64,000 nt of DNA from an uncultured Holophagales bacterium (GTDB lineage: Bacteria > Acidobacteriota > Thermoanaerobaculia > Multivoradales > UBA5704), in contig CAWJGT010000034.1 in NCBI GenBank assembly GCA_963842525.1, positions 352,001 through 416,000 of the forward strand, given 5' to 3'. The translations under genes were made by a program, and so were the position numbers. Shown here in pieces: positions 1 through 18,612 of the stretch; the stretch's first letter is position 1; every line of letters begins with the position of its first letter. The notes under the pieces were generated by a model, which worked only from the letters and a program-made list of their open reading frames with translations, was not told the origin of the DNA and did no database searches.

Positions 1-2988
1 CTGCGCCAGCTCCCCGCCGAGCAGCAGGAGCTGGAGGTGGGCGCCTGGCTGGAGGCGGAGCGGCGCCGCGGCTTCGACTGGTCGCAGCCGCCGTTGCTGC
101 GGTTCCACATCCACCTCCTGGACGAGGACACGTTCCAGAACAGCCTGAGCTTCCATCATTCCGTCCTCGACGGCTGGAGCGCCGCCACTCTGCGGACGGA
201 GCTGATGCGGGTCTATATGTCCACCCTGCGCGGCGAGGAGCTGCCGGAGCTTCCCCCGGACACCGGCTTCCGCGACTTCATCGCCCTCGAGCGGCAGGCC
301 CTGGAGTCCGCGGACACGCGGGAGATGTGGCTGCGGAACCTGGAGGGCGCCACAGCGACCCCGCTGCCGCGCTGGCCGCGGCCAAAGGTGGAGTCCCGCC
401 GGGGGCGCGACCTCTTCGTGCCCGTCTCTCCGGAGGTGGTGGACGGCTTGAAAAGGGCCGCCCGCCAGGCCGGCGTGCCGCTCAAGAGCATGCTCTGCGC
501 CTCCCACCTCAAGGTGATCCAGCTCGTCAGCGGCGAGAGCGACGTGATCATCGGCATCGTCGCCAACGGCCGCCCCGAGCAGGAGGGGGCCGACCAGTCC
601 CTGGGTCTCTTTCTCAACACGCTGCCCTTCCGGCTGCGCCTGGGGGAAGAGAGTTGGGCCGGGCTGGCGGAGGCCGCCTTTGCGCTGGAGCGTGACATGC
701 TCCCCCACCGCCGCTTCCCGCTGGTGGAGATCCAGGCCGCGCACGGCGGCCGGCCGCTCTTCGAGACGGTCTTCGGGGTGATCCAGTTCCACGTTTATAA
801 GGAGACCCGGGCCATCGGCGGCATTCAGGCCCTGTCCAGCTTCGGCTACGAAGAGACCAACTTCCCCCTCGGGGTCAACTTCGCGCTCGACGCCGAGGGC
901 TCGCAACTCGCCGTCCGCCTCAATTTCTCGGACGCCGAGATCGCCCTGGAGCAGGTCCGGACCATCGGCTCCTACTTCGAGCGGGCGCTGACAGCGATCG
1001 CCGACGCCCCCCGGCGCCCCCACGCCGAGGCTGCCCTGCTGAGCGAAGTGGAGCGCCGGCAGCTCTGCCACGACTGGAGCCGGGGCGGACCGGCGGCTCC
1101 CCGGGTCCACGCCGCCCGGCTGTTCGAGGAGCGCGTCCGGCAGGCTCCCGGCGCCCTGGCGGTGGTCGCCGACGGCGCCCGGCTCAGCCTGGGCGAGCTC
1201 GACCGGCAGGCCAACCAGGTGGCGCGGCTCCTCTCGGCGCGGGGCGTGGGGCCCGAATCGCGCGTCGCAGTCTGCCTCGACCGCTCTCCGGCCCTGCTGG
1301 TGGCCCTGCTCGCCATCTGGAAGGCCGGCGGAGCCTATGTGCCTCTCGACCCGTCCTATCCGTTCGAGCGCCTGAAGCTGATGCTCACGGACTCCCGGGC
1401 GGCGCTCCTGGTGACGGAGGACCCGCTGCTGGCCGCCCTGCCGGGCCCTCTCGAAGGGCTCCCGATCCTCCGCCTGGACGCCGACGCGTCGCTCATCGCG
1501 GCGGAGAGCGGCGATCCCCTGAAGGAGCCCCGGGATCCCGAGAGCCTGGCCTACGTCATCTACACGTCGGGCTCGACAGGCCTGCCCAAGGGGGTCCTGG
1601 TGCCGCATGGCGGCCTCGGCAACCTGGCCGCGGCGCAGACCGCGGCCTTCGATGTCCAGCCGGGAGACCGCGTCCTGCAGTTCGCCCCGGTGAGCTTCGA
1701 CGCTTCGGTGTCGGAGATCCTGCTTTCGTTGCTCGGCGGGGCGGAGCTCCACCTCGCCCCCGCGCCGCGGCTGATGCCCGGACCGGACCTCCTGGAGCTG
1801 CTCACCGAGCGGCGCATCACGCACCTGACGCTGCCGCCATCGGTCCTCGCCTCCCTGCCCGAGGCGCCGCTGCCGGACCTCCGGGTCCTGGTGTTGGCGG
1901 GCGAGGCCTGCCCGCCCGAGCTGGTCCGCCGCTGGAGCGGAGGACCGGCGGGCCGCACGGTGGTCAACGCCTACGGCCCCACCGAATCGACGGTCTGCGC
2001 CACCGCCGGCGATGCCGCGGGAGAGGGCGCGAGCCCTCTGGCGGGCGAGGGCAGGCTGGCGATCGGCCGGCCGATCACCGGCCTGCGCGTCCTTGTGCTC
2101 GACCGCACCCTGGCGCCGGCGCCCACCGGCGCTCCCGGCGAGATCCTGCTCGGCGGCGCCGGCCTCGCCCGCGGCTACCACGACCGGCCCGGCCTCACCG
2201 CCGAGAGATTCGTGCCCGACCCCTTCGGCTTCCCCGGCGGCGCGCCGGGCGAACGGCTCTACCGCACCGGCGATCTCGGGCGGTGGCTGCCGGACGGGAC
2301 CCTGGACTTCCTGGGCCGCATCGACCAGCAGGTCAAGATCCGGGGTTTCCGGATCGAGCCGGGCGAGGTCGCGGCGGCCCTCGAGCGCCATCCCTCCGTG
2401 CGCAACGCGGTGGTCGCGGCCTGGGACGCGGGTGGCGACCTGCGCCTGGCCGCCTGGGTCGTGCCGCGGGAGGAAGCCGCGGGCGAAGCGGCGGCGCTCC
2501 CGGCGCAGCTCGGCGGCTTCCTGCGGGCGTCCCTGCCGGCCCATATGGTGCCGTCGGCCTTCGTGATGATCGACGACCTGCCCCTCACACCCAGCGGCAA
2601 GCTGGACCGGGGCCGCCTGCCCCACCCCGGCTCCGTCCGCATCGGCCGCGAGGACCGCTACGTCGCCCCGCGCAACGCCACGGAGCAGCAGCTCGTCGAG
2701 ATCTGGGCCGGCGTGCTCGGTCTGGAACGGGTGGGCGTCGACGACAGCTTCCTGGAGCTGGGCGGGCACTCGCTCCTCGCCATGAAGCTCATCCTGCGCG
2801 TGCGCTCCGAGCTGGGGATCGACCTGCCGCTACGGATGCTCTACGGCACCAACACCCTGGCCGACATGGCCCTGGCAGTGGCGAACGCCGAGGCCCAGGG
2901 CCTCGACGCCGACCTTCTGGCCGAATTGCTGGAGGAGGTCGAGCAGACGTCGCCCGACCAGCTCGATGCGGAGCTCGCCGATGAATGA
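1..2988 (+). CDS. NRPS module C(DCL-like)-A-T, 5'-truncated by the window edge; A-domain code DASTVAAVCK (Tyr-like)
   Basis: C motif SFHHSVLDGWS and FETVFGVIQFHVY (DCL-like). A motifs YVIYTSGSTGLPKG, FDASVSE, NAYGPTE, YRTGD, QVKIRGFRIE, PLTPSGKLDR. PCP LGGHSL. Acidic C-terminal docking tail. Frame is open from the window start. Confidence 0.95.
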   Translation: MRQLPAEQQELEVGAWLEAERRRGFDWSQPPLLRFHIHLLDEDTFQNSLSFHHSVLDGWSAATLRTELMRVYMSTLRGEELPELPPDTGFRDFIALERQALESADTREMWLRNLEGATATPLPRWPRPKVESRRGRDLFVPVSPEVVDGLKRAARQAGVPLKSMLCASHLKVIQLVSGESDVIIGIVANGRPEQEGADQSLGLFLNTLPFRLRLGEESWAGLAEAAFALERDMLPHRRFPLVEIQAAHGGRPLFETVFGVIQFHVYKETRAIGGIQALSSFGYEETNFPLGVNFALDAEGSQLAVRLNFSDAEIALEQVRTIGSYFERALTAIADAPRRPHAEAALLSEVERRQLCHDWSRGGPAAPRVHAARLFEERVRQAPGALAVVADGARLSLGELDRQANQVARLLSARGVGPESRVAVCLDRSPALLVALLAIWKAGGAYVPLDPSYPFERLKLMLTDSRAALLVTEDPLLAALPGPLEGLPILRLDADASLIAAESGDPLKEPRDPESLAYVIYTSGSTGLPKGVLVPHGGLGNLAAAQTAAFDVQPGDRVLQFAPVSFDASVSEILLSLLGGAELHLAPAPRLMPGPDLLELLTERRITHLTLPPSVLASLPEAPLPDLRVLVLAGEACPPELVRRWSGGPAGRTVVNAYGPTESTVCATAGDAAGEGASPLAGEGRLAIGRPITGLRVLVLDRTLAPAPTGAPGEILLGGAGLARGYHDRPGLTAERFVPDPFGFPGGAPGERLYRTGDLGRWLPDGTLDFLGRIDQQVKIRGFRIEPGEVAAALERHPSVRNAVVAAWDAGGDLRLAAWVVPREEAAGEAAALPAQLGGFLRASLPAHMVPSAFVMIDDLPLTPSGKLDRGRLPHPGSVRIGREDRYVAPRNATEQQLVEIWAGVLGLERVGVDDSFLELGGHSLLAMKLILRVRSELGIDLPLRMLYGTNTLADMALAVANAEAQGLDADLLAELLEEVEQTSPDQLDAELADE

Positions 2989-5900
2989 AGCGGAGCGGCG
3001 GATCGCCTCCCTTTCCCCCAAGCAGCGCGAGCTGCTGATGCGCAAAATGCGGGAGCGCGGAACCCCGCCGGTCGCCCCCCGCACGCCCGAGATCCCAAGA
3101 ATTCCTGACGGGCCCACAGACCGCCACGCTCCCGTCCCCCCCACCGACTTCCAGGAAGCCCTGTGGCTGTCCCGGAGCGGCATCTTCGATCTCGGCGGCT
3201 CTGGGGCGAACGTCTATCTGGAATACGAGTTCCCCGGCATCGTCTGGCAGCTCGCCGCCAGCCTCAACGACGCCCTGCGAACCTTGATCGAACGGCACGA
3301 GATGCTGCGCACCGTCGTGCTCCCGGACGGCCAGCTCCAGCTCCTCTCCGAGGTGCCGCCCTACGAGGTCGAGGTCGCGGACCTGAGCGGGCGCGGCGCG
3401 GAGAGGATCGAGGAGCGCCGCCTCCAGATCCGCGAGGAGATGCGCTACGCCAATCGGCCGCCGGACCGCTGGCCGCTCTTCGAGATCGTCCTCCACCAGC
3501 TCGACGAGGGCAGGATCCGGCTGCACGCGCGCTTCGACCTGATCCTGATCGACGGCGCCGCCCGCGGCGTGCTCCTCTCGGAGCTGGTGCTGGTCCTCAA
3601 TCTCCCGGACCAGCCGCTGCCGGAGCTGGACGTGTCGTTCCTGGACCATGTCCGGGCGGTGGCCGCCTTCCGGGAGACCGAGACCTACGCCCGCGCCCAC
3701 GCCTACTGGATGGAGCGGCTGCCGCACCTGCCGCCCCCGCCGGTCCTTCCCCTGGCCCGTGCCCTCGCCCCCGAGGATGTGCCCAGGGTGGTCAAGCGCG
3801 ACCAGGAGGTGCTCGGAGCGGAGGACTGGCAGACGCTCTGCGGCCGGGCGGCCCGCGCCGGGATCACTCCCACCACCGCCGTCTCCGCAGCTTTCGCCGA
3901 GGTGCTGCGGTCGTGGAGCGCGGCCCCCGATTTCAGCGTGGGCTTCGGCGGCACCTACCGCCCCCCGATCCACCCCCACATCGAACGTGTTCTGGGCAGC
4001 TTCACGATCATCCACCTCCTGGCCTTCGAGGACGGTCCCGGCAGCTTCATCGACCGCGCCCGCCGCCTGCAGGAACGGATCGCCGCCGACCTCGACCACC
4101 AGGAGGTCTCGGGCCACCAGGTCCTGCGGGAATACAACCGGCTGCACCGGGTCGGCGCCCGCAGCGCCATGCCCATCCAGCTCAACAGCGTGGTCGGGTA
4201 CGGCTCCAACGCCCAGGCGGCGGCAGCGCCCCCGGCCTCGCCGGATGCTCCCGCGCCGGAGGGCGGCGCGCAGCCGGCGCCGCGGCCGATGATCCAGGTC
4301 GACCTGACCGAGGTGGACCTCCTGGCCACCCTCCCCCAGGTCCTGCTGTTCTGGGTCGTCCTGCCGAACCTGCAGGGCGGTCTCTCCCTGGTCAGCCAGG
4401 CCGTCGAGGAGGTGCTCCCCGGCGAGCTGGTCCCGGAGATGATCGAGGCCTACCGCGACCTGCTCTCCCGCCTCGCCACCCTGGACGCCGCGTGGTCCGA
4501 GGAGCGCCCCGCGCAGTGGGGAAAGAGCCGGCAGGAGGCGCTCCCCGCCGGTCCCACACCGGACGGAGCCGAGGACCTGTACCGCCGCATCGAGGAACAG
4601 GCGCGGACGAGCCCCGAGGCCCCGGCCCTGATCACCCCGAAAGGCACGCTCACCTACCGCGAGGTCCTCGACCGCGGCCCCCTCGCCGCCCTGGCTCCCG
4701 ATGGAAAGCCCCTGCCGGCAGGAACGGGCGCCGCCCTCCTGGACCTCGTCCACCGTCTGGAGCTGCGCCCCGGCGACCGTCTCTTCTCCCTGGCGCCCGC
4801 CGGCTCCCAGCCGGCCCTGGCCGACCTCCTGGCCTCCCTGGCCGCCGGTGCGGCCGTCGTGCTGCCGGCGCCCGGGGAGGAGCGCGATCCCGCCCGCCTC
4901 GCCGCGCTGGCGGCGCAGCACCGGGTCACCGTCTGGAGCTCGCCTCCGGCACTGCTGGAGGCCGTGGTCACCCACGCCGAAGGCCGCCGCCGGGCCGCCT
5001 TCCCTCCCCTGCGCCTGGCGCTGCTCCACCGCGACGCCGCGCCCTCTACGCTGGCGGCCCGCCTGGGAGCGCTCTGCCCCGGAGCACGCCTCACCTTCAC
5101 CTGGAGCTCTCCCGAGATACCCCTGGCCGCCGTGGCCGGGCCTTTCGCTCCTTCGGATCCGGCGGCGGAAGCCGCCTTCGAGCCCCTGGCCGGGCGCCGC
5201 CTCCAGGTCCTCGACGCAAGCGGCGTCCCGCGGCCGGCGTGGGCTCTCGGAGAGCTGTGGGCCGGGGGGCCCGACGGGCCCCTGGCGTACACCGGCGAGC
5301 GGGCGCAGCTCCTTCCGGACGGCAGGATCGCATTGCGGGGCGCCGGCACGGCGCCGCCGCCGGAGGCGCTGGGGTACGGCGCGGAGACGCGGTTCGTCGA
5401 GAGCGCCCTGCAACGGCACCCGGCCCTGCGTCACGCCCTGGTGGAATGGCGGGCCGGGGGGCCGCGAGGCCGGCTCCTGGCCTGGGTTCTGCCGCGCCCG
5501 GGCCGCCCGCCCTCCGCCAAGGAGCTGCGCCGCCACCTGCGCGCCGCAGGCCTGCCCGCGCACATGGTGCCGGACAGCTTCACCTTCCTGGAGCGCCTCC
5601 CCCTGACAGCGGACGGGGCCGTGGACCGCAGCCTCCTGCTGCCGCCGCCCTCGGCGGAGCCCGCCGCGGCGCCGGGAGCCTGGGGAGAGGTGGAGACGGA
5701 GCTGGCGGCGCTCTGGGAGGAGGTCCTGGGGCGACGCCCCACGACCCTGGACGACGACTTCTTTCTGTCGGGGGGGGACTCGGTGGCCGCGGTGCGGCTG
5801 CTCGCCCGCGTCACCCGTCGCTGGGGACGGGACGTGGACCCCGGCGAGCTCTTCGCGCGTCCGACCCTGGCGGGCCTGTCCGCCGCCGTGCGCCGTGGAG

Positions 5901-7420
5901 CCGGCCTCTCCTCCCGTTCCCCGCTTCCCCTCCCCGCCTGGGCTCGGGGCGCGGGCTCCCGGCTCGCCGGGCTCGGCCGGCGTCTGGCGGCGGCCGTTCC
6001 CGCCCTCCAGACAGGCAACCTCGCAAGACGGACCGCATCGCACGGTCTGCGCATGTACGCCATCCTCTGGATCGGACAGACCGTCTCCGGCATGGGGACG
6101 GCGCTCGGGACCTTCGCCTTGGGGGTCTGGCTTTTCCAGGAGACGAAATCGGTAACCCAGTTCTCAGGGCTGATGCTCTCCAGCGTCATCACCGGCCTGC
6201 TCCTGAACCCGGTCGCCGGGTCGTTGGCCGACCGCGTCGACCGCCGCCGGGTGCTGTTCCTCTGCAATTTGGCCTCGATGGCGATGACGCTCACCCTGGC
6301 GACGGCTCTCTGGCAGGGCTTCATGAGGCCCGAATACAGCTACATCATGGCGGTGGGCATGACCTGTATCGGCGTCCTGCAAGGCCCGGCTTTCGTCGCC
6401 TCGATCAGCACGCTGGTACCACGCCACCTCCTGGTCCGCATCACCAGCATGGCGCAGACCTCCGGGATGGTCCTCGCCATGATCGCCCCCCTGCTGGCAG
6501 GCTTCCTGGTGGGGAAGCTCAGCTACCACGGCGTGATCTTCATCGACGCCTGCACCTTCCTGTTCGCCGCCCTGACGCTGTTGCTGGTGCGCATCCCTCA
6601 ACCGCCGGCCTCCCAGCACTCGGGCCGCGACAACCCCTTCTACCGCGACATCCTCGTCGGCTTCAGCTATGTCAAGGCCCGGCCGGGCCTGCTCAGCCTC
6701 CTGATCCTCTTCGGCATCTCGAACTTCTCCATCGGCACGGTGCAGATCCTGCTGACGCCTCTCATCCTGAGCTTCGCCACCCCCGAGCAACTGGGCAGCG
6801 TGAACTCCGCCGCCCTCGCCGGGCTCTTCCTCGGTGGTCTGGTCCTCAGCATCTGGGGCGGGCCGCAACGGAAGGTCTGGAGCATCTTCGGCGCCCTGGT
6901 CGCCCAGGCGCTCATCCTGTTCCTGGGCGGCCTGCAGCCCAACCTGCAACTGGTGATGGGCGCCGTCTTCGCCTTCATGCTCGCCGGCCCCTTCGTGGGC
7001 AACAGCAGCCAGGCGATCTGGCAGAGCAAAGTGCCTCTGGACCTCCAGGGCCGCGTCTTCGCCGTGCGCGGCCTCATCGCCACCGGGGCCCTGCCGCTGG
7101 CCTACTCCATCGCAGGACCTCTCGCCGACCACGTCTTCGAGCCCATGCTCTCTCCCGGCGGGCTGCTCGCCGGCACGGTGGGCCGGGTGATCGGCGTCGG
7201 CGACGGGCGCGGCGTCGGCTTCCTCTTCATACTCCTGGGGGCCCTCGTCCTTACCGCCACCCTGGCCTCCTTCCTCAACCCGCGCCTGCGCAACGTGGAG
7301 ACCGAGATCCCCGACGCTGCCGGTCCCGATCACGAACCCGATTCCTCGGCTCCCACGCCGGGCAATCCGAGCCTCGCAATCGGCCCTCAGGAGGCGATGA
7401 CCCAACCGTCAGCTCGATGA
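2981..7420 (+). CDS. NRPS-like fusion: docking helix, degenerate Cy domain, truncated inactive A domain, PCP, C-terminal MFS transporter
   Basis: ATG at 2981 overlaps the upstream stop. Cy motifs PTDFQEALWLSR..LGG, RHEMLR, DLILIDG, LPPPPVLPLA. PCP FFLSGGDSVAA. MFS motifs WIGQTVSGMG, GSLADRVDRRRV, WQSKVPLDLQGRVFA with many hydrophobic helices. Confidence 0.85.
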   Translation: MNEAERRIASLSPKQRELLMRKMRERGTPPVAPRTPEIPRIPDGPTDRHAPVPPTDFQEALWLSRSGIFDLGGSGANVYLEYEFPGIVWQLAASLNDALRTLIERHEMLRTVVLPDGQLQLLSEVPPYEVEVADLSGRGAERIEERRLQIREEMRYANRPPDRWPLFEIVLHQLDEGRIRLHARFDLILIDGAARGVLLSELVLVLNLPDQPLPELDVSFLDHVRAVAAFRETETYARAHAYWMERLPHLPPPPVLPLARALAPEDVPRVVKRDQEVLGAEDWQTLCGRAARAGITPTTAVSAAFAEVLRSWSAAPDFSVGFGGTYRPPIHPHIERVLGSFTIIHLLAFEDGPGSFIDRARRLQERIAADLDHQEVSGHQVLREYNRLHRVGARSAMPIQLNSVVGYGSNAQAAAAPPASPDAPAPEGGAQPAPRPMIQVDLTEVDLLATLPQVLLFWVVLPNLQGGLSLVSQAVEEVLPGELVPEMIEAYRDLLSRLATLDAAWSEERPAQWGKSRQEALPAGPTPDGAEDLYRRIEEQARTSPEAPALITPKGTLTYREVLDRGPLAALAPDGKPLPAGTGAALLDLVHRLELRPGDRLFSLAPAGSQPALADLLASLAAGAAVVLPAPGEERDPARLAALAAQHRVTVWSSPPALLEAVVTHAEGRRRAAFPPLRLALLHRDAAPSTLAARLGALCPGARLTFTWSSPEIPLAAVAGPFAPSDPAAEAAFEPLAGRRLQVLDASGVPRPAWALGELWAGGPDGPLAYTGERAQLLPDGRIALRGAGTAPPPEALGYGAETRFVESALQRHPALRHALVEWRAGGPRGRLLAWVLPRPGRPPSAKELRRHLRAAGLPAHMVPDSFTFLERLPLTADGAVDRSLLLPPPSAEPAAAPGAWGEVETELAALWEEVLGRRPTTLDDDFFLSGGDSVAAVRLLARVTRRWGRDVDPGELFARPTLAGLSAAVRRGAGLSSRSPLPLPAWARGAGSRLAGLGRRLAAAVPALQTGNLARRTASHGLRMYAILWIGQTVSGMGTALGTFALGVWLFQETKSVTQFSGLMLSSVITGLLLNPVAGSLADRVDRRRVLFLCNLASMAMTLTLATALWQGFMRPEYSYIMAVGMTCIGVLQGPAFVASISTLVPRHLLVRITSMAQTSGMVLAMIAPLLAGFLVGKLSYHGVIFIDACTFLFAALTLLLVRIPQPPASQHSGRDNPFYRDILVGFSYVKARPGLLSLLILFGISNFSIGTVQILLTPLILSFATPEQLGSVNSAALAGLFLGGLVLSIWGGPQRKVWSIFGALVAQALILFLGGLQPNLQLVMGAVFAFMLAGPFVGNSSQAIWQSKVPLDLQGRVFAVRGLIATGALPLAYSIAGPLADHVFEPMLSPGGLLAGTVGRVIGVGDGRGVGFLFILLGALVLTATLASFLNPRLRNVETEIPDAAGPDHEPDSSAPTPGNPSLAIGPQEAMTQPSAR

Positions 7421-7460: not shown

Positions 7461-8792
7461 GTGATTGAGAATCGACAAATCAGGATCAGCGGAGCCGAGA
7501 TGCGCCAGACCGGCTCGCTACGCAGAGCGATCGAGAAAAGGGTGGGACCGGGGGCGCTGCGCTGGTACGTCACGGCCGCAGACCGCAGCGAGCTGGTGGT
7601 AGAGGCCACCATCGACACCGAAGCCAAGGCAGTGGCCGGCGAGACGCCAGCCGACCCGGGCGAGCGACCTCTCTATCCCGGCAAGGTCGCGGTCGTCAGT
7701 ATCGTCCCCACCGGCGTCGGCTGCTCTATCGGCGGCTATGCCGGTGACGCCGCGCCGGTCACCAACCTGCTCGCGGCGACCGCCGACTATCTGATCACCA
7801 ATCCCAACGCGGTCAACGCCTCCGATTTCATCAGCCTGGAGAGCAATGTTCTCTATACCGAGGGCTTCTGCATCGACCTGCTGGCCAAGGGCGAGATCGA
7901 TCTCTATGTGCCCTTCGCCAATCGCGTGGGGCTGATCGTCGAGCGGGCCGAGCCCGCAGCGCTCGACGCGGTCTTCAACGTGGTCAACACCGTGCGCGCC
8001 GTCCATGGGGTGGACATCGTCGACTGCGTTGTCACGCAACGGCCGCTCGGCAGCCGCTGCATCAAGAGCCGCTCGGGCGCCTTCGTCGGCACCGTCGAGC
8101 ATCCTGAGGTGTTGCTCGAAGCCTGCCGCCGGCTGATCGACCAGGGAGCGAATGCCATTGCGGTGACCTCCCAAATCCAGGACCTGCCGCCGGACGATTA
8201 CGTGCAGCACTTCGCCGGCGCCGGCGACGCGCCCAACCCCATGGGTGGTGTCGAGGCCGTCGTCTCTCACCTGATCGTAGACCGCTTCCGCGTGCCGGCG
8301 GCGCACGCGCCGATGCTCAACCAGAAGGAGCTGGATCTGCTCGATCGCGTGGTCGATGCCCGCGCCGGCGGTGAGATGTCGTCGGCGAGCGGTCTCGCCT
8401 GCGTGTTGATCGGATTGCGGCGAGCGCCGCAGCTCGCGCGCACGCCGCGGCTGCGCGCAGCCGATGTCCTCAACGTGAATAACCTTCTCGCGGTGGTGGC
8501 GCCGGCCGGCTGCCTGGGGGGCATCCCGGTGCTTTGCGCCATTGAACGCGGCATCCCGGTCATCGCAGTGGCGGCGAACGAGACCATCCTTTCGGTGGGG
8601 AGCGCCGCGCTTGGCATCGAGGATGAGGTGATCGAGGCGCGCAGTTATGCCGAGGCCGCGGGGTTGCTCCTCGCGTTCCGGCGCGGGATCTCTTCCGACA
8701 GCCTGACCCGGCCGTTGAAAACTTTGCGGCACCGCCGCTCATTGATCACGGCCGTGGAGAAGCCCCGGATTGGCAGGCGTGCAACTGGATAG
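7461..8792 (+). CDS. DUF3326 family protein
   Basis: Motifs IVPTGVGCSIGGYAGDA, LITNPNAVNA, NPMGGVEAVVSH, PAAHAP, ARSYAEAAG. GTG start after GGAGG. Confidence 0.8.
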   Translation: MIENRQIRISGAEMRQTGSLRRAIEKRVGPGALRWYVTAADRSELVVEATIDTEAKAVAGETPADPGERPLYPGKVAVVSIVPTGVGCSIGGYAGDAAPVTNLLAATADYLITNPNAVNASDFISLESNVLYTEGFCIDLLAKGEIDLYVPFANRVGLIVERAEPAALDAVFNVVNTVRAVHGVDIVDCVVTQRPLGSRCIKSRSGAFVGTVEHPEVLLEACRRLIDQGANAIAVTSQIQDLPPDDYVQHFAGAGDAPNPMGGVEAVVSHLIVDRFRVPAAHAPMLNQKELDLLDRVVDARAGGEMSSASGLACVLIGLRRAPQLARTPRLRAADVLNVNNLLAVVAPAGCLGGIPVLCAIERGIPVIAVAANETILSVGSAALGIEDEVIEARSYAEAAGLLLAFRRGISSDSLTRPLKTLRHRRSLITAVEKPRIGRRATG

Positions 8793-10547: not shown

Positions 10548-13014
10548 ATGGCAAACTTCGACGTCTTCCTCAGCCACAACAGCAAGGACAAGCCCATCGT
10601 CCGCGAGATCGAGGCCAGGCTGCGCGAGCTGGGCGTCAAGCCCTGGCTGGACGAGAAGGTTCTCCTGCCCGGCGACCGATGGCAGGACGAGATCGAGAAG
10701 ATCATCCGCACCTGCGAGACCGCCGCCGTCCTCGTCGGCCCCAGCGGCATCGGGCCGTGGCAGGAGCCCGAGATGCGCGGTTGTCTCCAGGAATTCGTTC
10801 GGCGGCGGTTGCGCGTCATCCCCGTCCTGCTCCCCGGCGCACCCAGGAAGCCACGCCTTCCTCTGTTCTTGAAGGATTTCAGTTGGCTGGACCTTCGGAA
10901 CGGCCTGGCCGATTCCCTGCTGGACAGCTTCGTAGAAGCGATCCGCAAGGGTCAACAAAAGAAGGCTCGCGCGGTATCTACTCCGAAAAAGGCGCCGGAG
11001 CCACAGACGGGTCCGACCTTCCACAACCTCCCCTTCCCGCCGCTGCGCGACCTCTTCAAAGGAAGGGACACCGACCTCCTTCGTCTGGAGTCCACCCTCG
11101 ACCAGCCCGGCCGGGCCGCCGCCATCACCCAGAGCGAGGCGATCTCCGGCCTCGGCGGCATCGGCAAGACCCGCCTCGCCGTGGAGCACGCATGGCGCTG
11201 CGGCCACCGCTATACGGCCGCCTTCTTCGTCCGCGCCGACACGCCCGAGGCGCTCCGCCGCGGCCTCGCGTCTCTGGCCGGCCCGGCCCTGCTGAGCCTG
11301 CCGGAGCGGACGGCCGCGGTGGAAGAGGAGGTGGTCGCGGCGGTCCTGCGCTGGCTGCGGGAGCATCCCGGCTGGCTGTTGATCCTCGACAACGTGGATA
11401 CGGAAGAGGCGGCCGCCGCCGTGGGCGCGCTCCTGTCCAGCCTCTCGGGAGGACGGGTGCTCATCACCTCCCGGCTGAGCGAATGGCCGCCTGACGTCCT
11501 CACGGAGCCCCTGGACACGATTTCACGGGCGGAAGCCGTCCATTTCCTCCTCCAGCGCACCAAAAAGGACGATCCAGAGCAGGCCGGCCGGCTGGCGGCG
11601 GTCCTCGGGGATCTCCCGCTAGCGCTCGAGCAGGCCGCCGCCTACATCCTCCACACGCGGATGCGCTTCACCGACTACCTCGACGCCTGGCAGCGCGAGC
11701 GCCCGCAGGTGCTCCGCTGGCACAACCCCCGCCTGATGAAGTATCCCGCCCCGGTCGCCGTCACCTGGCAGACTACCTTCGAGGAGCTCGGCCCGTCCTC
11801 AGCCGCGCTCCTCCGCCTGACCGCTTTCCTGGCCCCCGACCCCATTCCGGTCGCGATGTTCGAGGAAGGGTCCGGGACCGTCGAGCAGGCGGCGGCCCTG
11901 TTCTGCGAGGAAACCGGCCGGCAGCCGGCCCCCTGCCCAGTCCGCGAGGCGCTCGCCGAGTTGGCGGCCTATTCGATGGTCACACTCCAAGACAAGGGGA
12001 CGTTCGCGGTCCACCGGATGGTCCAGGAGGTGCTGCGGAGCCACATCCCTGCGGACCGGCTCAGGGCCTGGATCGAAGCTCGCTCTGCGGATCGTGAACG
12101 CGGCGGCGGTCAGTGGCTCCAGCGATGTTCGCACGTGGCCGCGCTGGAACCCCTTACTGCCTCATGTCGCGCAAATTGTGGCCCAAGCAGATGAAGCCGG
12201 CATCGCAGAGCCGACGAGCCGGCTCATGAACGACCTCGGAAATCACCTCGCAGCGAAAAGCCTACACGCTGAGGCCGAGCCCCTTTACCGCCGCACGTTG
12301 ACCATCGCTGAGCAGCACGGGCAACCCCACCTCGGTACCTACCTCAACAACCTGGCGGCGTTGCTCCAGGCGACGAACCGTTATTCGGAGGCCGAGCCGT
12401 TGATGCGCCGCGCCCTGGCCATCGCCAAGCAGGCCTTCGGGTCGGATCACCCCAAGGCCGTCAGACACCTCAACAATCTGGCTTTGTTGCTCCAGGCGAC
12501 GAACCGTTATTCGGAGGCCGAGCCGTTGATGCGCCGCGCCCTGACCATCGACGAGCAGGCCTTCGGGACGGAACACCCCAACGTCGCCATAGACCTCAAC
12601 AACCTGGCTTTGTTGCTCCAGGCGACGAACCGTCATTCGGAGGCCGAGCCGTTGATGCGTCGCGCCCTGGCCATCGATGAGCAGTCCTTGGGGAAGGAAC
12701 ACCCCAATGTCGCCATAGAACTCAACAACCTGGCTCAGTTACTCCAGGCGACGAACCGTCTGCCGGAGGCCGAGCCGTTGATGCGCCGCGCCCTCGCCAT
12801 CGACGAGAAGTCCTTCGGGGCGGAACACCCCAACGTCGCCATCCGCCTCAACAACCTGGCTCAGTTGCTCAAGGAGACGAACCGTCAATCGAAGGCCGAG
12901 CCGATGATGCGCCGCGCCCTGGCCATCCTCGAGAAAAGCCTGCCTCCGGGCCACCCGTGGAGAGAGGGTGCGCGGCGAAACCTCGCGGCGCTTCTGGAGG
13001 AAATTTCCTCTTGA
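10548..13014 (+). CDS. TIR - NB-ARC - TPR (NLR-like) protein, split by a frameshift near 12077
   Basis: TIR FDVFLSHNSKDK..WLDE..GPWQEPE. Walker A GLGGIGKT, Walker B LLILDN, ITSR, GDLPLALEQAAAY, VHRMVQ. ORF 12094-13014 continues with 42-aa TPR repeats; removing one A near 12077 restores IELALRIVN. Confidence 0.88.
12343..12930 (+). repeat. Five 126-nt tandem TPR-coding repeats of high nucleotide identity
   Basis: Units begin ctcaacaa at 12343, 12469, 12595, 12721 and 12847 and encode LNNLAxLLQATNRxSEAEPLMRRALxIDE. Confidence 0.9.
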
Positions 13015-16544: not shown

Positions 16545-17560
16545 CTACGGCAAGAACCCCTCGATCACCGTCCCCCGCCCGGACTCCAGCGCCTTTTCGC
16601 GCACGAGCTGCCCTACGGCCAGGTCGAGGACGCCGAGGCCGAAGGGGCTGAAGACCGTGATTGCGGCCTCGTCGCGCTTGGGTGGCGCGGTGCCCGCCAG
16701 CAGGTCGGCGAGGGTACAGCGGATGAAGTCCCGGTTTCCCGCCTGCTGCTTGGCGAGGTGGATCGAGGTCTGGGCGCGGCTGACATGGTCGGCGTCGTCC
16801 ACCACGTTGTCCGCGGCGAGGATCACCCCGGCAGTGAGATCGCGCAGCGAGGTGTGGAGGATGGTGGCGCCCGGCGGGCATGCGGACAGGTCCGCCACGT
16901 GCGGCCGAACCGCGGTGGTGGCAAAGGCGATCAGGGGGCAGCTCCGGAAGATCTCGTCTGCGCTGTCCGCGACCTCCGCCTCGACGTCGCGATAGCCGTG
17001 CAGCATCTCCTGGAGCGCCGCGGCCATCGCTTGCGCCCGCTCGCGGTGCAGGTCGAAGAGGACGAAGCGCTCGAGGTCCGGGACGGCCCGCACCAGGAAG
17101 CGGGCGGTCTCGAAATTGATCACCCCGGTGCCGATCAGCCCTGCCACGCGAGTCTGGCGTCCCTTGCGCAGCTCGCGGGCAGCCAGGGCGGCGCTCGCGG
17201 CCGTCCGCCGGGCACTGATCGACGAGCTCTCCAGGATTGCCTCCGGCAGGCCGGTGGTCGCGCTGTTGAGGATCAGCACCGCCGAGGCGCGCGCCAAGCC
17301 CCGCTTCAGGTTGCCGGGAAACGAGGCGATCCACTTCATGCCGGCGACGCCGAAGCCGTCACCCAGGTAGGCGGGCAAGGCAATGATACGGTTGAGGTCG
17401 TCGTTGGGAAAGCGGAGGAAGGTCGAGTGCGGGAGCGAGTCTCGCCGCGGCCATGCGCCAGGTAGGCGCGCGCCACCACGTCCATGACCTCCGTCTCCCG
17501 GCCGGCGAGGAGCGATGCCACCTCGCCGCCGCGCAGGATCAGGATGTCGTCATCTCTCAT
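16545..17560 (-). CDS. sbnB: 2,3-diaminopropionate biosynthesis protein SbnB (ornithine cyclodeaminase family), frameshift near 17435
   Basis: AYLAHGRG, PHSTFLRFP..RIIALPAYLG, GMKWIASFPGN, RTAASAAL, GTGVINFE, FSPFGLGVLDL. Coupled to sbnA. Confidence 0.9.
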
Positions 17561-18612
17561 TTAAACAGGGTCTCGTTCTCGGGCCAGAGATCGGTCCCCT
17601 CGCCGAAGTGGCCACGCACCCATTCGTCCGAGTAGACCGTGTCCAGATAGCGCTCGCCGCGATCGGGCAGGATCACGACGCAGGTAGCGCCGGCGGGGAT
17701 CCTATCCCGGATCTTGCCGACCGCGCTCACCAGCCCTCCAGAGGAGGCGCCGGCAAGGATCCCTTCGCGGCGCACCAGCGCACGGCAGCCGGCGATGCAT
17801 TCGAGGTCGGAGACGTGGACACATTCGTCGATGTACTGGAGGTCGCAGAGCGGGGGGCGCAGACCCGCCCCCATGCCGGGCAGGTGGCGGGGACCCTGGA
17901 CGTCGGAGAAGATCAGGCTCCCCACCGAGTCGACCGCCACGACCCTGGTCACCAGCCCGTGCCGGCGCACGTACTCGCCGCAGCCGCGGACCGTGCCGCA
18001 GGTGCTGGTGGCACAGAAGACGTAGTCGACCTTGTCGTTGAGCTCCTCGACGATCTCACGCATGGTGGTGCGGAAGTGCGCGCCCGCATTGCTCTCGTTG
18101 GCGTACTGGTTGGGCCAGAACGAGCTTGCTCGAGCTCCTCCACGAGCTGCCGGACGCGCTTGAGCCGGGCCGGCAGGAGCTCGCCCGGTCTCCGGATCGG
18201 GCTCGGCGACGAAGTCGATCTGTGCGCCGTAGACCTCGAGAATGCGCAGATTCTGGTGCGACGCCTTGATGTCGACGACGCAGATGAAGCGCAGACCGAA
18301 GTACGCGCAGGCCTGCGCGAGGCCGATGCCCATGTTGCCCGAGCTCGACTCGACGACGACCGTGTCGGGCCCTACGTGGCCGGCGCGGATCGCCGCTTCG
18401 AGGATCTCGATCGCCGGCCGGTCCTTGAGGCTCCCGCCGGGGTTGAGCGCCTCCAGCTTGCCGAAAAGGCGGAAGGGCAGATCCGGGTAGACCTTTTCCA
18501 GGCGGACGAGCGGCGTGCTGCCCACCGCGGCCAACACCCCCTTCCTCGTCATCTCCTCGCCGACCGGCGCGGACAGCGTACCGTTTCGTGGGAGAGCGGA
18601 GAGCGTCGTCAT
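17557..18612 (-). CDS. sbnA: 2,3-diaminopropionate biosynthesis protein SbnA (PLP, cysteine-synthase-like)
   Basis: KLEALNPGGSLKDR, ESSSGNMG, WPNQYAN, ATSTCGT, PDRGERYLDTVYSDEW. Apparent compensating indels at ~18125-18185. Confidence 0.9.
   Translation of the reverse strand: MTTLSALPRNGTLSAPVGEEMTRKGVLAAVGSTPLVRLEKVYPDLPFRLFGKLEALNPGGSLKDRPAIEILEAAIRAGHVGPDTVVVESSSGNMGIGLAQACAYFGLRFICVVDIKASHQNLRILEVYGAQIDFVAEPDPETGRAPAGPAQARPAARGGARASSFWPNQYANESNAGAHFRTTMREIVEELNDKVDYVFCATSTCGTVRGCGEYVRRHGLVTRVVAVDSVGSLIFSDVQGPRHLPGMGAGLRPPLCDLQYIDECVHVSDLECIAGCRALVRREGILAGASSGGLVSAVGKIRDRIPAGATCVVILPDRGERYLDTVYSDEWVRGHFGEGTDLWPENETLFK

Follow-up and report, generated by a model that had tools for sequence, protein, structure and literature searches.

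A nonribosomal peptide synthetase terminus without a release domain: a remodelled heterocyclization-type domain, an adenylation remnant and a carrier fused to an exporter

How does a nonribosomal peptide synthetase (NRPS) assembly line end when none of its proteins carries a domain for releasing the product? This question is raised by a gene at positions 2981-7420 of the forward strand of the window, by which we mean the whole 64,000-nucleotide stretch that was analysed (positions 352,001 to 416,000 of contig CAWJGT010000034.1, assembly GCA_963842525.1, from an uncultured Holophagales bacterium). As an initial annotation of the sequence had proposed, the gene encodes a terminal NRPS module in which a remodelled heterocyclization (Cy)-type domain, a remnant of an adenylation (A) domain and a peptidyl carrier (PCP) domain are fused to a transporter of the major facilitator superfamily (MFS). 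We use the name Cy* for the Cy-like domain of this protein and for its clade. The arrangement is real: its architecture is conserved across a family, it occupies the end of the line with neither a thioesterase (TE) nor a reductase (R) domain, and it is co-inherited with a dedicated MFS clade. On balance, we lean towards the view that the protein is a non-elongating hand-off module, in which Cy* would bring the finished chain to the terminal carrier for off-loading at the pump. Release is the least predictable step of nonribosomal peptide synthesis, and lines lacking TE and R domains usually go unexplained in genome mining.

There is a single open frame from 2966/2981 to 7420, with no internal stop (residue numbers are counted from the ATG at 2966). 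The likely start codon is the ATG at 2981, which overlaps the TGA of the upstream gene (2986-2988) and matches the N-termini of homologues. From this ATG the predicted protein begins with MNEAERRIASLSP, an N-terminus common to free-standing homologues. The domain order is docking helix, Cy-type condensation domain, adenylation remnant, carrier, basic linker and 12-helix MFS domain of the DHA3 type. The start codon and the docking-type helix (MNEAERRIASLSPKQRELL...) occupy 2981-3085, as judged from the overlap with the upstream stop and from conservation in the family. This docking segment shows 47% mean identity among free-standing family members, whereas an in-line paralogue on contig C3 of the same genome has a plain linker instead.

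The position of the protein at the end of its line is also as initially proposed. The 3' part of the last elongating NRPS gene (1-2988, forward strand) encodes, according to Pfam and an alignment of A motifs, a normal condensation (C)-A-PCP module with an acidic C-terminal tail. Its A domain is intact, with an AMP-binding match covering profile positions 1-384 of 384 and every A motif present in the alignment. The stop codon of this gene overlaps the start of the terminal gene, whose product opens with the docking helix. No TE or R domain follows the terminal carrier, since the next gene encodes a DUF3326 protein, and no upstream TE that could mark a different terminus was found.

There are three Cy* end modules in this genome of 9.95 Mb and 34 contigs, one in the window (contig C34) and one each on contigs C19 and C3. 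Each closes a run of same-strand NRPS frames (C34, ~237-359 kb; C19, ~216-300 kb; C3, ~1589-1503 kb), and each run is putatively a single assembly line. Regular expressions find 27 P-loop and 31 carrier motifs in the C34 run, corresponding to ~27-31 modules. Cy* is fused in-line behind a PCP in the C3 paralogue, as it is in the homologue P0126 and in genome G074. Although there are 14 matches to PF00975 and 11 to PF07993/NAD_binding_4 in the genome, none lies in the three Cy*-ended NRPS runs, and the nearest PF00975 match on C34 is ~162 kb downstream of the gene (the whole genome was searched). No accessory gene is common to the three end-module loci, where only antisense shadow frames of NRPS genes matched one another. 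Therefore, the end device is the only common candidate for termination.

The Cy* domain (3128-4519) is recognised by Pfam Condensation at residues 99-382 (profile positions 43-330 of 456), by PDB matches, by a family hidden Markov model and by its place in a tree. Alignments bear out the initial reading of its motifs: DLILID (D191 to D196) provides the DxxxxD that stands in place of HHxxxDG, PIQLNS replaces the canonical PVVFTS, and ATLPQVLLF replaces the canonical SQTPQVxLD. This reading is the same against the five canonical Cy domains of its own genome and against the solved EpoB-Cy and BmdB-Cy2 domains, which Cy* matches with E values of 3e-60 and 3e-52 (the best PDB matches range from 3e-60 to 2e-50). 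However, the label of pseudo-Cy is not supported, because the domain belongs to a separate conserved clade with invariant residues of its own. The family model scores the three genome copies at 639-710 bits (710 for the copy in the window), and canonical Cy domains reach at most 470.

From 275 Cy-type and C domains gathered from the genome and from homologue matches, a FastTree of 116 domains was built that included 48 rows with an Arg marker, 60 canonical Cy domains and 8 ordinary C domains. The canonical rows consisted of 5 from the genome and 55 chosen at random, with three duplicates of the genome's sequences left out. All but two of the 48 Arg-marker rows form one clade (46 rows, SH-like support 99), which is sister to a clade of 62 rows. 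The sister clade holds all canonical Cy domains plus the two other marker rows, and the latter have canonical motifs. Thus, in this tree Cy* does not group inside the canonical Cy clade.

Residue counts over 45 Cy* and 219 canonical Cy domains separate what has been kept from what has been lost. Cy* keeps the second Asp of DxxxxD (44/45, compared with 218/219 in canonical Cy), the alpha-10 Arg (42/45 and 213/219), and both the Pro (45/45 and 175/219) and the Gln (44/45 and 218/219) of TPQ. The dyad Thr is found in only 10 of 45 Cy* domains, with Asn in 27 and Asp in 8, whereas it is present in 202/219 canonical domains; the Thr of TPQ is in 0/45 and 205/219, respectively. The dyad Asp and the helper Gln (206/219 and 193/219 in canonical Cy) are not among the five commonest residues at their positions in Cy*, which in each case account for 44 of 45 domains, and within the family only P0020 keeps the dyad Asp. 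In the window, the positions of the dyad Thr, dyad Asp and helper Gln are occupied by N407, F462 and V464. Conversely, Arg200, in the segment D191xxxxD196-G-x-x-R200, is present in 45/45 Cy* domains, and the four residues found most often there in canonical Cy (138 of 219) do not include Arg.

The published account of HMWP2-Cy2 presents a model with the alpha-10 Arg at the acceptor-carrier phosphoserine, has the Pro-Gln of TPQ in contact with the acceptor arm, and describes Asp-Thr as a putative catalytic dyad and the DxxxxD aspartates as structural (PMC9547227). Because of the pattern of kept and lost residues, Cy* would seem to retain what seats the downstream carrier and its phosphopantetheine arm. 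By the same pattern, its acceptor amino acid site appears to have turned hydrophobic, and the four residues for cyclodehydration have been replaced. Cy* is a conserved sister lineage of canonical Cy, and the module in the window is not a case of local decay. Members of the family can be recognised by simple sequence markers: a core motif with DGxxR, PQxLL with a hydrophobic residue directly after it, and a carrier joined to a DHA3 MFS domain.

The adenylation region has been reduced to a core remnant (4733-5272) and a C-terminal subdomain (5378-5632), both identified by Pfam and alignment. The AMP-binding match at residues 596-769 covers only profile positions 198-377 of 384, which leaves the A4-A7 region, and AMP-binding_C matches at residues 811-884. 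The initial annotation was correct that the A3 P-loop and the A10 Lys are missing: A1 is present, A2-A3 including the P-loop are deleted, as judged against longer homologues and against the intact upstream A domain, and A10 reads DGAVDR. An alignment of 16 rows (the intact upstream A domain as reference and 15 family sequences, including those of the window and the C19 paralogue) shows the A3 P-loop (SGTTGxPKG) in 0/15 family A regions and the A10 Lys only in P0038. The A domain of the C19 paralogue is full-length but motif-dead, whereas that of the window lacks its N-terminal half. The A core is absent altogether from the C3 paralogue and from 10/45 family members, 6 of which also lack the C-terminal subdomain. 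The remnant is thus probably unable to activate an amino acid, so that the module would add no residue to the chain.

Mean pairwise identity among 33 members is 46.7% for Cy*, 48.2% for the A core, 48.8% for the C-terminal subdomain, 47.0% for the carrier, 56.1% for the MFS domain and 23.8% for the linker. Cy*, the A remnant, the carrier and the MFS domain are thus all under constraint; the A remnant is dispensable. The initial description of a pseudo-A domain consequently needs amendment, because the remnant, where present, is conserved as much as the carrier domain. The carrier itself (5678-5899; Pfam PP-binding at residues 912-975, E 2.5e-12) has the predicted PP-binding fold and an intact GGxS Ser, namely Ser939 (codon 5780-5782) in the motif LSGGDS, whose codons span 5765-5782. 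This Ser is invariant in 33/33 and 39/39 aligned family members. A carrier domain follows Cy* in 45/45 members, and Cy* is not a terminal releasing C domain of the CT type.

The same conservation could serve a different purpose. Perhaps the terminal carrier is loaded in trans, either by another A domain of the line or by a free one, and Cy* adds this last residue through an amide, ester or thioester bond but does not cyclodehydrate it; release would then be left to a distant hydrolase or to spontaneous chemistry, and the MFS domain would be fused only for proximity. Modules that lack an A domain and are loaded in trans are known, for example in HMWP1 of yersiniabactin synthesis, and an internal canonical Cy-A module, a possible source of Cys, Ser or Thr, is present in two of the three lines. 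The retained acceptor-carrier contacts of Cy* and the invariant carrier Ser fit this explanation, as does AzsO, a Cy domain with a Thr>Asn change that acylates a side chain and relies on a discrete thioesterase (PMC10445470). However, all four polar acceptor-facing residues of canonical Cy are hydrophobic or neutral in Cy*, and the C19 line has no canonical Cy module. A free-standing A gene, like a shared accessory gene, was not found at the three end-module loci, and release would still lack an explanation. We consider trans-loading a serious contender, albeit an unlikely one.

A basic linker (5900-6046), delimited by composition and by the lowest conservation of all parts of the protein (24%), joins the carrier to the transporter. 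The 50 residues ahead of the MFS helices include 8 Arg/Lys and zero Asp/Glu, a composition as expected for a linker predicted to be cytoplasmic. The MFS domain (6047-7300) is matched by Pfam MFS_1 at residues 1034-1372 (92 bits) and by MFS_3 (32 bits), both above their cut-offs. It shows ~12 hydrophobic segments by hydropathy and carries GSLADRVDRRR, which agrees with the motif A pattern G-x-x-x-D-R-x-x-R-R. The nearest NCBIfam model is TIGR00900 (170.7 bits, below its cut-off of 319.6), and the EntS and Mef models are far below theirs. Thus, the transporter is a member of the DHA3 / EntS-Mef branch and not of any named equivalog. There is also a weak match to NF006386, which describes an MFS-acyltransferase-ligase fusion (E 8.9e-5). 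The protein ends with a Pro/Ala-rich tail and its stop codon (7301-7420; TGA 7418-7420).

The link to an exporter is conserved in homologues, in which the MFS domain is either fused or encoded by the next gene. It is fused in 39/45 members of the Cy* clade. The carrier frame of the C3 paralogue ends in a TAG, and five codons further on the MFS begins in that same frame. The carrier and MFS frames overlap or are one stop apart in relatives from G004 and G005, and in G074 the MFS frame comes after the in-line Cy*-carrier and overlaps it. In a tree of 143 MFS rows, a single clade of 42 rows takes in 39/44 Cy*-linked MFS domains, and its three remaining rows are truncated records in which the upstream part cannot be seen. 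A group labelled Herpetosiphonaceae and P0041 lie outside this main clade. The homologue P0008 is 84-95% identical to the window protein in Cy*, the A remnant and the carrier. Because its MFS domain is only 48% identical, and its linker 14%, the carrier-MFS junction appears to have recombined.

A homology search with the carrier-MFS part gave 328 significant matches. Among the best 120 of these, 35 combine Condensation and MFS without Thioesterase, 75 have Thioesterase as well, and 10 have the MFS domain fused to other enzymes. The closest named relatives among the matches listed are metagenome-assembled genomes labelled Thermoanaerobaculia, with 80% identity in the carrier-MFS part, and others are labelled Herpetosiphonaceae. 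A locus scan across GTDB yielded 600 matched stretches and 419 confirmed relatives; the 80 loci retained from these 419 are mostly ordinary modules followed by an MFS gene, and only two of those 80 (L026 and L031) are Cy* family members. In an order-wide search with a whole-protein profile, which scored four candidates per genome, canonical Cy-A-PCP modules outscore Cy*. An MFS match in G011 was rejected as a family member, because there is no NRPS beside it.

The wider branch to which this MFS domain belongs includes several other arrangements. It occurs as a separate gene after C-A-PCP-TE in Myxococcus xanthus AM003 and after C-A-PCP-R in Lysobacter. In P0036, which has the order ketosynthase-acyltransferase-acyl carrier protein-C-MFS, the full-length terminal C domain of a polyketide synthase module is fused directly to the pump, and no carrier lies between them. 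Four proteins (P0037, P0039, P0041 and P0043) carry an M28 peptidase or penicillin-amidase domain beyond the C-terminal end of the MFS domain, attached via an acidic linker and a thirteenth helix. Their topology suggests that the hydrolase lies outside the membrane and acts in maturation after export. The branch would seem to be a hub through which products of assembly lines are exported and matured. P0032 has the usual Cy*, A remnant and carrier, and a 546-amino acid insert (residues ~900-1445) before the MFS domain. The insert looked like a hydrolase by eye, but this assignment was dropped because Pfam finds nothing there; its Atlas features resemble those of GT4 glycosyltransferases with a high score, which is a lead only. 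If real, the insert would be a tailoring domain at the terminal station.

The carrier and the complete MFS domain are in one frame in the window, as both Pfam and the open frame indicate. No stop or indel separates them wherever near-identical contigs cover the junction. Two such contigs from one soil metagenome, with at least 98.7% identity, cover 5932-6083 and 6077-6227 without gaps; of their two differences in the linker, at positions 5977 and 6011, one is synonymous in a Gly codon and the other changes Thr to Ala. This part of the fusion has thus stood up to the comparison, and for the stretch 5783-5931, which has no near-identical contig cover, the frame rests on the open frame and on fused homologues. 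Contigs matching the window are mostly from distant relatives, and near-identity is limited to two from X4 and a small number from X2 and X3. No public sequencing run contains more than 1/10 of the sampled words of the window, and no RNA run is listed. A run of eight G is located at 5770-5777, inside the GGDS codons of the carrier motif. Length errors are likely at such a run when an assembly is made from long reads, and the frame given here yields the conserved motif.

Other NRPS genes of this assembly do contain frame breaks. Within C34:237000-355000, which lies upstream of the window and includes its first 3 kb, several NRPS frames shift inside A domains, so that A3 is in one frame and A7-A10 in the next (e.g. 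at ~334.2 kb and ~346.8 kb). These breaks, the G8 run, the lack of any public run carrying the window at a high share and the repeated loss of the A core are what might be expected if the gene were a decaying Cy-A-PCP terminus without function, or if the carrier-MFS fusion were an assembly error. However, the pattern of the module is repeated in 45 clade members, which come from many sources and show 37-90% identity, so that homologues share the supposedly degenerate features instead of having full active Cy-A domains. In addition, conservation of the domains is well above that of the linker, the family has invariant residues of its own, and the fused form is present in a second paralogue of the same genome as well as in most of the clade. 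Together with the gapless contigs over 5932-6227, these observations largely refute an explanation by relic or artefact, which we now regard as extremely improbable.

For the hand-off reading, the following sequence of events can be proposed. The protein would dock on the last elongating module via its N-terminal helix. Cy* would then take the completed peptide off the upstream carrier and pass it to the unloaded thiol of the terminal carrier, or process the chain there in some other way. The idea of a thiol acceptor comes from the hydrophobic acceptor pocket, the dead A domain and published Cy variants; the paper on AzsO cites a proposal that Cy domains form a thioester first (PMC10445470). 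The terminal carrier would be tethered by the short basic linker at the cytoplasmic face of the DHA3-type MFS domain. Because the linker would hold the carrier there, off-loading may take place at the pump mouth, and the product may exit the cell directly. What we infer is the thiol-to-thiol transfer, the step that breaks the bond and frees the product (by hydrolysis or through a trans-acting enzyme encoded at a distance) and which product is exported.

Several points weigh against this proposal. We know of no C-superfamily domain described to acylate a bare phosphopantetheine thiol, and the hand-off alone leaves the thioester unbroken. A hydrolase was not found in or beside the three end-module loci, and no catalytic residue (His, Cys, Ser, Asp or Glu) is specific to the Cy*-linked MFS domains, whose 20 group-specific positions are occupied by Thr, Gln, Arg, Tyr, Pro, Gly and hydrophobic residues. 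The tree of the MFS domains is not congruent with that of Cy*; because of this and of the divergent MFS domain of P0008, the pump appears to be swappable, which argues against an intimate, co-evolved catalytic interface between carrier and pump. MFS transporters of this type are known for substrates below 1 kDa, and the presumed product of ~27-31 modules is large for such a pump. Finally, the upstream frame breaks may be assembly indels or real damage, and they leave the function of the line doubtful in this assembly.

A bolder version would make Cy* a peptidyl thiol-to-thiol transferase, which with the carrier and the MFS domain forms a self-contained termination device that couples release to export in the manner of DltC-DltB. 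The chain, once complete, would wait on a carrier docked at the pump and be freed only on entering it. We put this forward as speculation and doubt that it holds in full. In the DltC-DltB system, a carrier-bound thioester is presented to a membrane protein. Coupling of synthesis to export is likewise known from PpsE-MmpL7 and from LplT-Aas fusions, although the protein families differ from those of the window. If true, the proposal would give the NRPS condensation superfamily a reaction that has so far not been attributed to it. TE, R and terminal C domains would be joined by another general means of ending NRPS lines, one that would be used by giant lines of genomes labelled Acidobacteriota and Chloroflexota.

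Two atypical Cy domains in the literature resemble Cy* in part. AzsO of azaserine synthesis (Cy-A-CP) also keeps DxxxxD, has Asn for the dyad Thr, carries a docking domain and has no TE of its own, and its Cy domain catalyses acyl transfer to an ester without cyclodehydration (PMC10445470). As described there, AzsO differs in having a working A domain that loads Ser, Asn instead of a hydrophobic residue for the dyad Asp, a discrete thioesterase (AzsB) in its cluster and no MFS fusion. A comparison by description thus finds the Thr>Asn change in the window and in 27/45 family members, no Asp>Asn change, a dead A domain and no TE nearby. TlnC-Cy of thiolactomycin synthesis represents an atypical Cy clade with Asn for the dyad Thr, is located at the end of its line and off-loads a thiocarboxylate (bioRxiv 10.1101/2024.12.18.629141). 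In that report, however, the dyad Asp is kept and needed, Cys is loaded on the carrier by a working A domain, and no transporter link is described. Canonical Cy domains (EpoB-Cy, 5T7Z; BmdB-Cy2, 5T3E; HMWP2-Cy2, 7JTJ) share DxxxxD, the alpha-10 Arg and the acceptor-channel Pro-Gln with Cy*, but Cy* replaces the dyad Thr, the dyad Asp, the helper Gln and the Thr of TPQ and gains an invariant Arg.

NRPS-MFS fusions have indeed been annotated elsewhere, as initially noted, but the named actinobacterial examples have a TE. Proteins with the NCBI name 'non-ribosomal peptide synthetase/MFS transporter' are found in Streptosporangium, Kitasatospora, Amycolatopsis, Micromonospora and others, and likewise consist of a terminal module fused at its C-terminus to a transporter of the MFS_3/DHA3 type. 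Their MFS parts are 31-36% identical to the carrier-MFS part of the window protein and their MFS domains form a separate clade. They have full-length C and A matches in Pfam, and a Thioesterase is located between carrier and MFS domain (the 75 proteins among the best 120 of 328 matches), whereas the window protein has no PF00975 match and does not belong to this C-A-PCP-TE-MFS type. Like the Cy* lines, Myxococcus xanthus AM003 and Lysobacter sp. CCNWLW3 have a last NRPS gene followed by an overlapping MFS_1/MFS_3 gene. Their last modules, however, are normal (C-A-PCP-TE or C-A-PCP-R), so release is explained, and the pump is a separate protein.

No paper on NRPS-MFS fusions or on the Cy* clade was found in searches limited to the open-access literature. 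Annotated NRPS-MFS fusions and published atypical Cy clades were known, and what appears to be new, as far as these searches go, is the TE-less termination device that combines a Cy offshoot, a carrier and a DHA3 pump. This device, which stands at the end of three very long NRPS regions of a single genome, occurs again in many uncultured lineages from soil and freshwater. It represents a third functional offshoot of the Cy family, beside AzsO and TlnC, and offers product-prediction tools a new class of terminus. In addition, a covalently fused synthase-exporter pair is a direct test case for the long-discussed coupling of synthesis and export.

The gene located 40 nucleotides downstream (7461-8792, forward strand) has its own GGAGGA and encodes a DUF3326 protein (Pfam PF11805, 298 bits). 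It is possibly co-transcribed with the end module, but it is not a general partner of such modules: there are two copies in the genome, and neither is at the C19 or C3 end module. The second copy (C9:1521306-1522673) is located beside genes for a luciferase-like monooxygenase and a LanB-type dehydratase. Searches for DUF3326 found no PDB relative and no NCBIfam match, and only its own family in Atlas. As far as the source that names it goes, the family has been named once, as PavB in a polyamine-toxin cluster (bioRxiv 10.64898/2026.06.12.731819). Some 9 kb beyond the end module are genes of the SbnB type (TIGR03944, 332.6 bits; 16545-17378, reverse strand) and SbnA type (TIGR03945, 388.4 bits; 17557-18612, reverse strand), both above cut-off. 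This pair corresponds to the pathway for L-2,3-diaminopropionate and probably supplies a building block for the line.

These neighbours bear on the possibility that Cy* itself releases the chain by cleaving the upstream thioester with water, with an internal nucleophile (macrocyclisation) or with a free amine such as diaminopropionate or a polyamine. The carrier would then have a secondary role, for example in gating, regulation or anchoring of the pump. Terminal C-type domains release chains in other systems, and in P0036 an MFS domain of this kind is attached directly to a full C domain. Synthesis of diaminopropionate is encoded in the window, as is a DUF3326 protein, whose family is represented in the polyamine toxin cluster (bioRxiv 10.64898/2026.06.12.731819), and the invariant Arg200 offers a possible binding site for an anionic group on a free acceptor. 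However, the carrier Ser and the acceptor-side residues for carrier binding are conserved throughout and would be needless for a free acceptor, and neither DUF3326 nor SbnA/B is encoded at the other two end-module loci. We therefore judge release by Cy* itself to be distinctly improbable, and continue to favour the hand-off reading.

The surroundings of the three end modules contain a few further features. The C19 end module is followed by NYN and ABC genes. After the C3 end module and its MFS gene, a new line starts with an AMP-binding domain of the fatty acyl-AMP ligase type and a carrier (C3:1495131-1500852, reverse strand; L024). In this next line, a C domain and a carrier are ~620 residues apart, with no Pfam match to an A domain between them. 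Beyond the cluster in the window, a frame encoding TIR_2 and AAA_16/DUF7779 followed by a TPR-rich frame (10548-13014, forward strand) corresponds to a STAND-type TIR protein.

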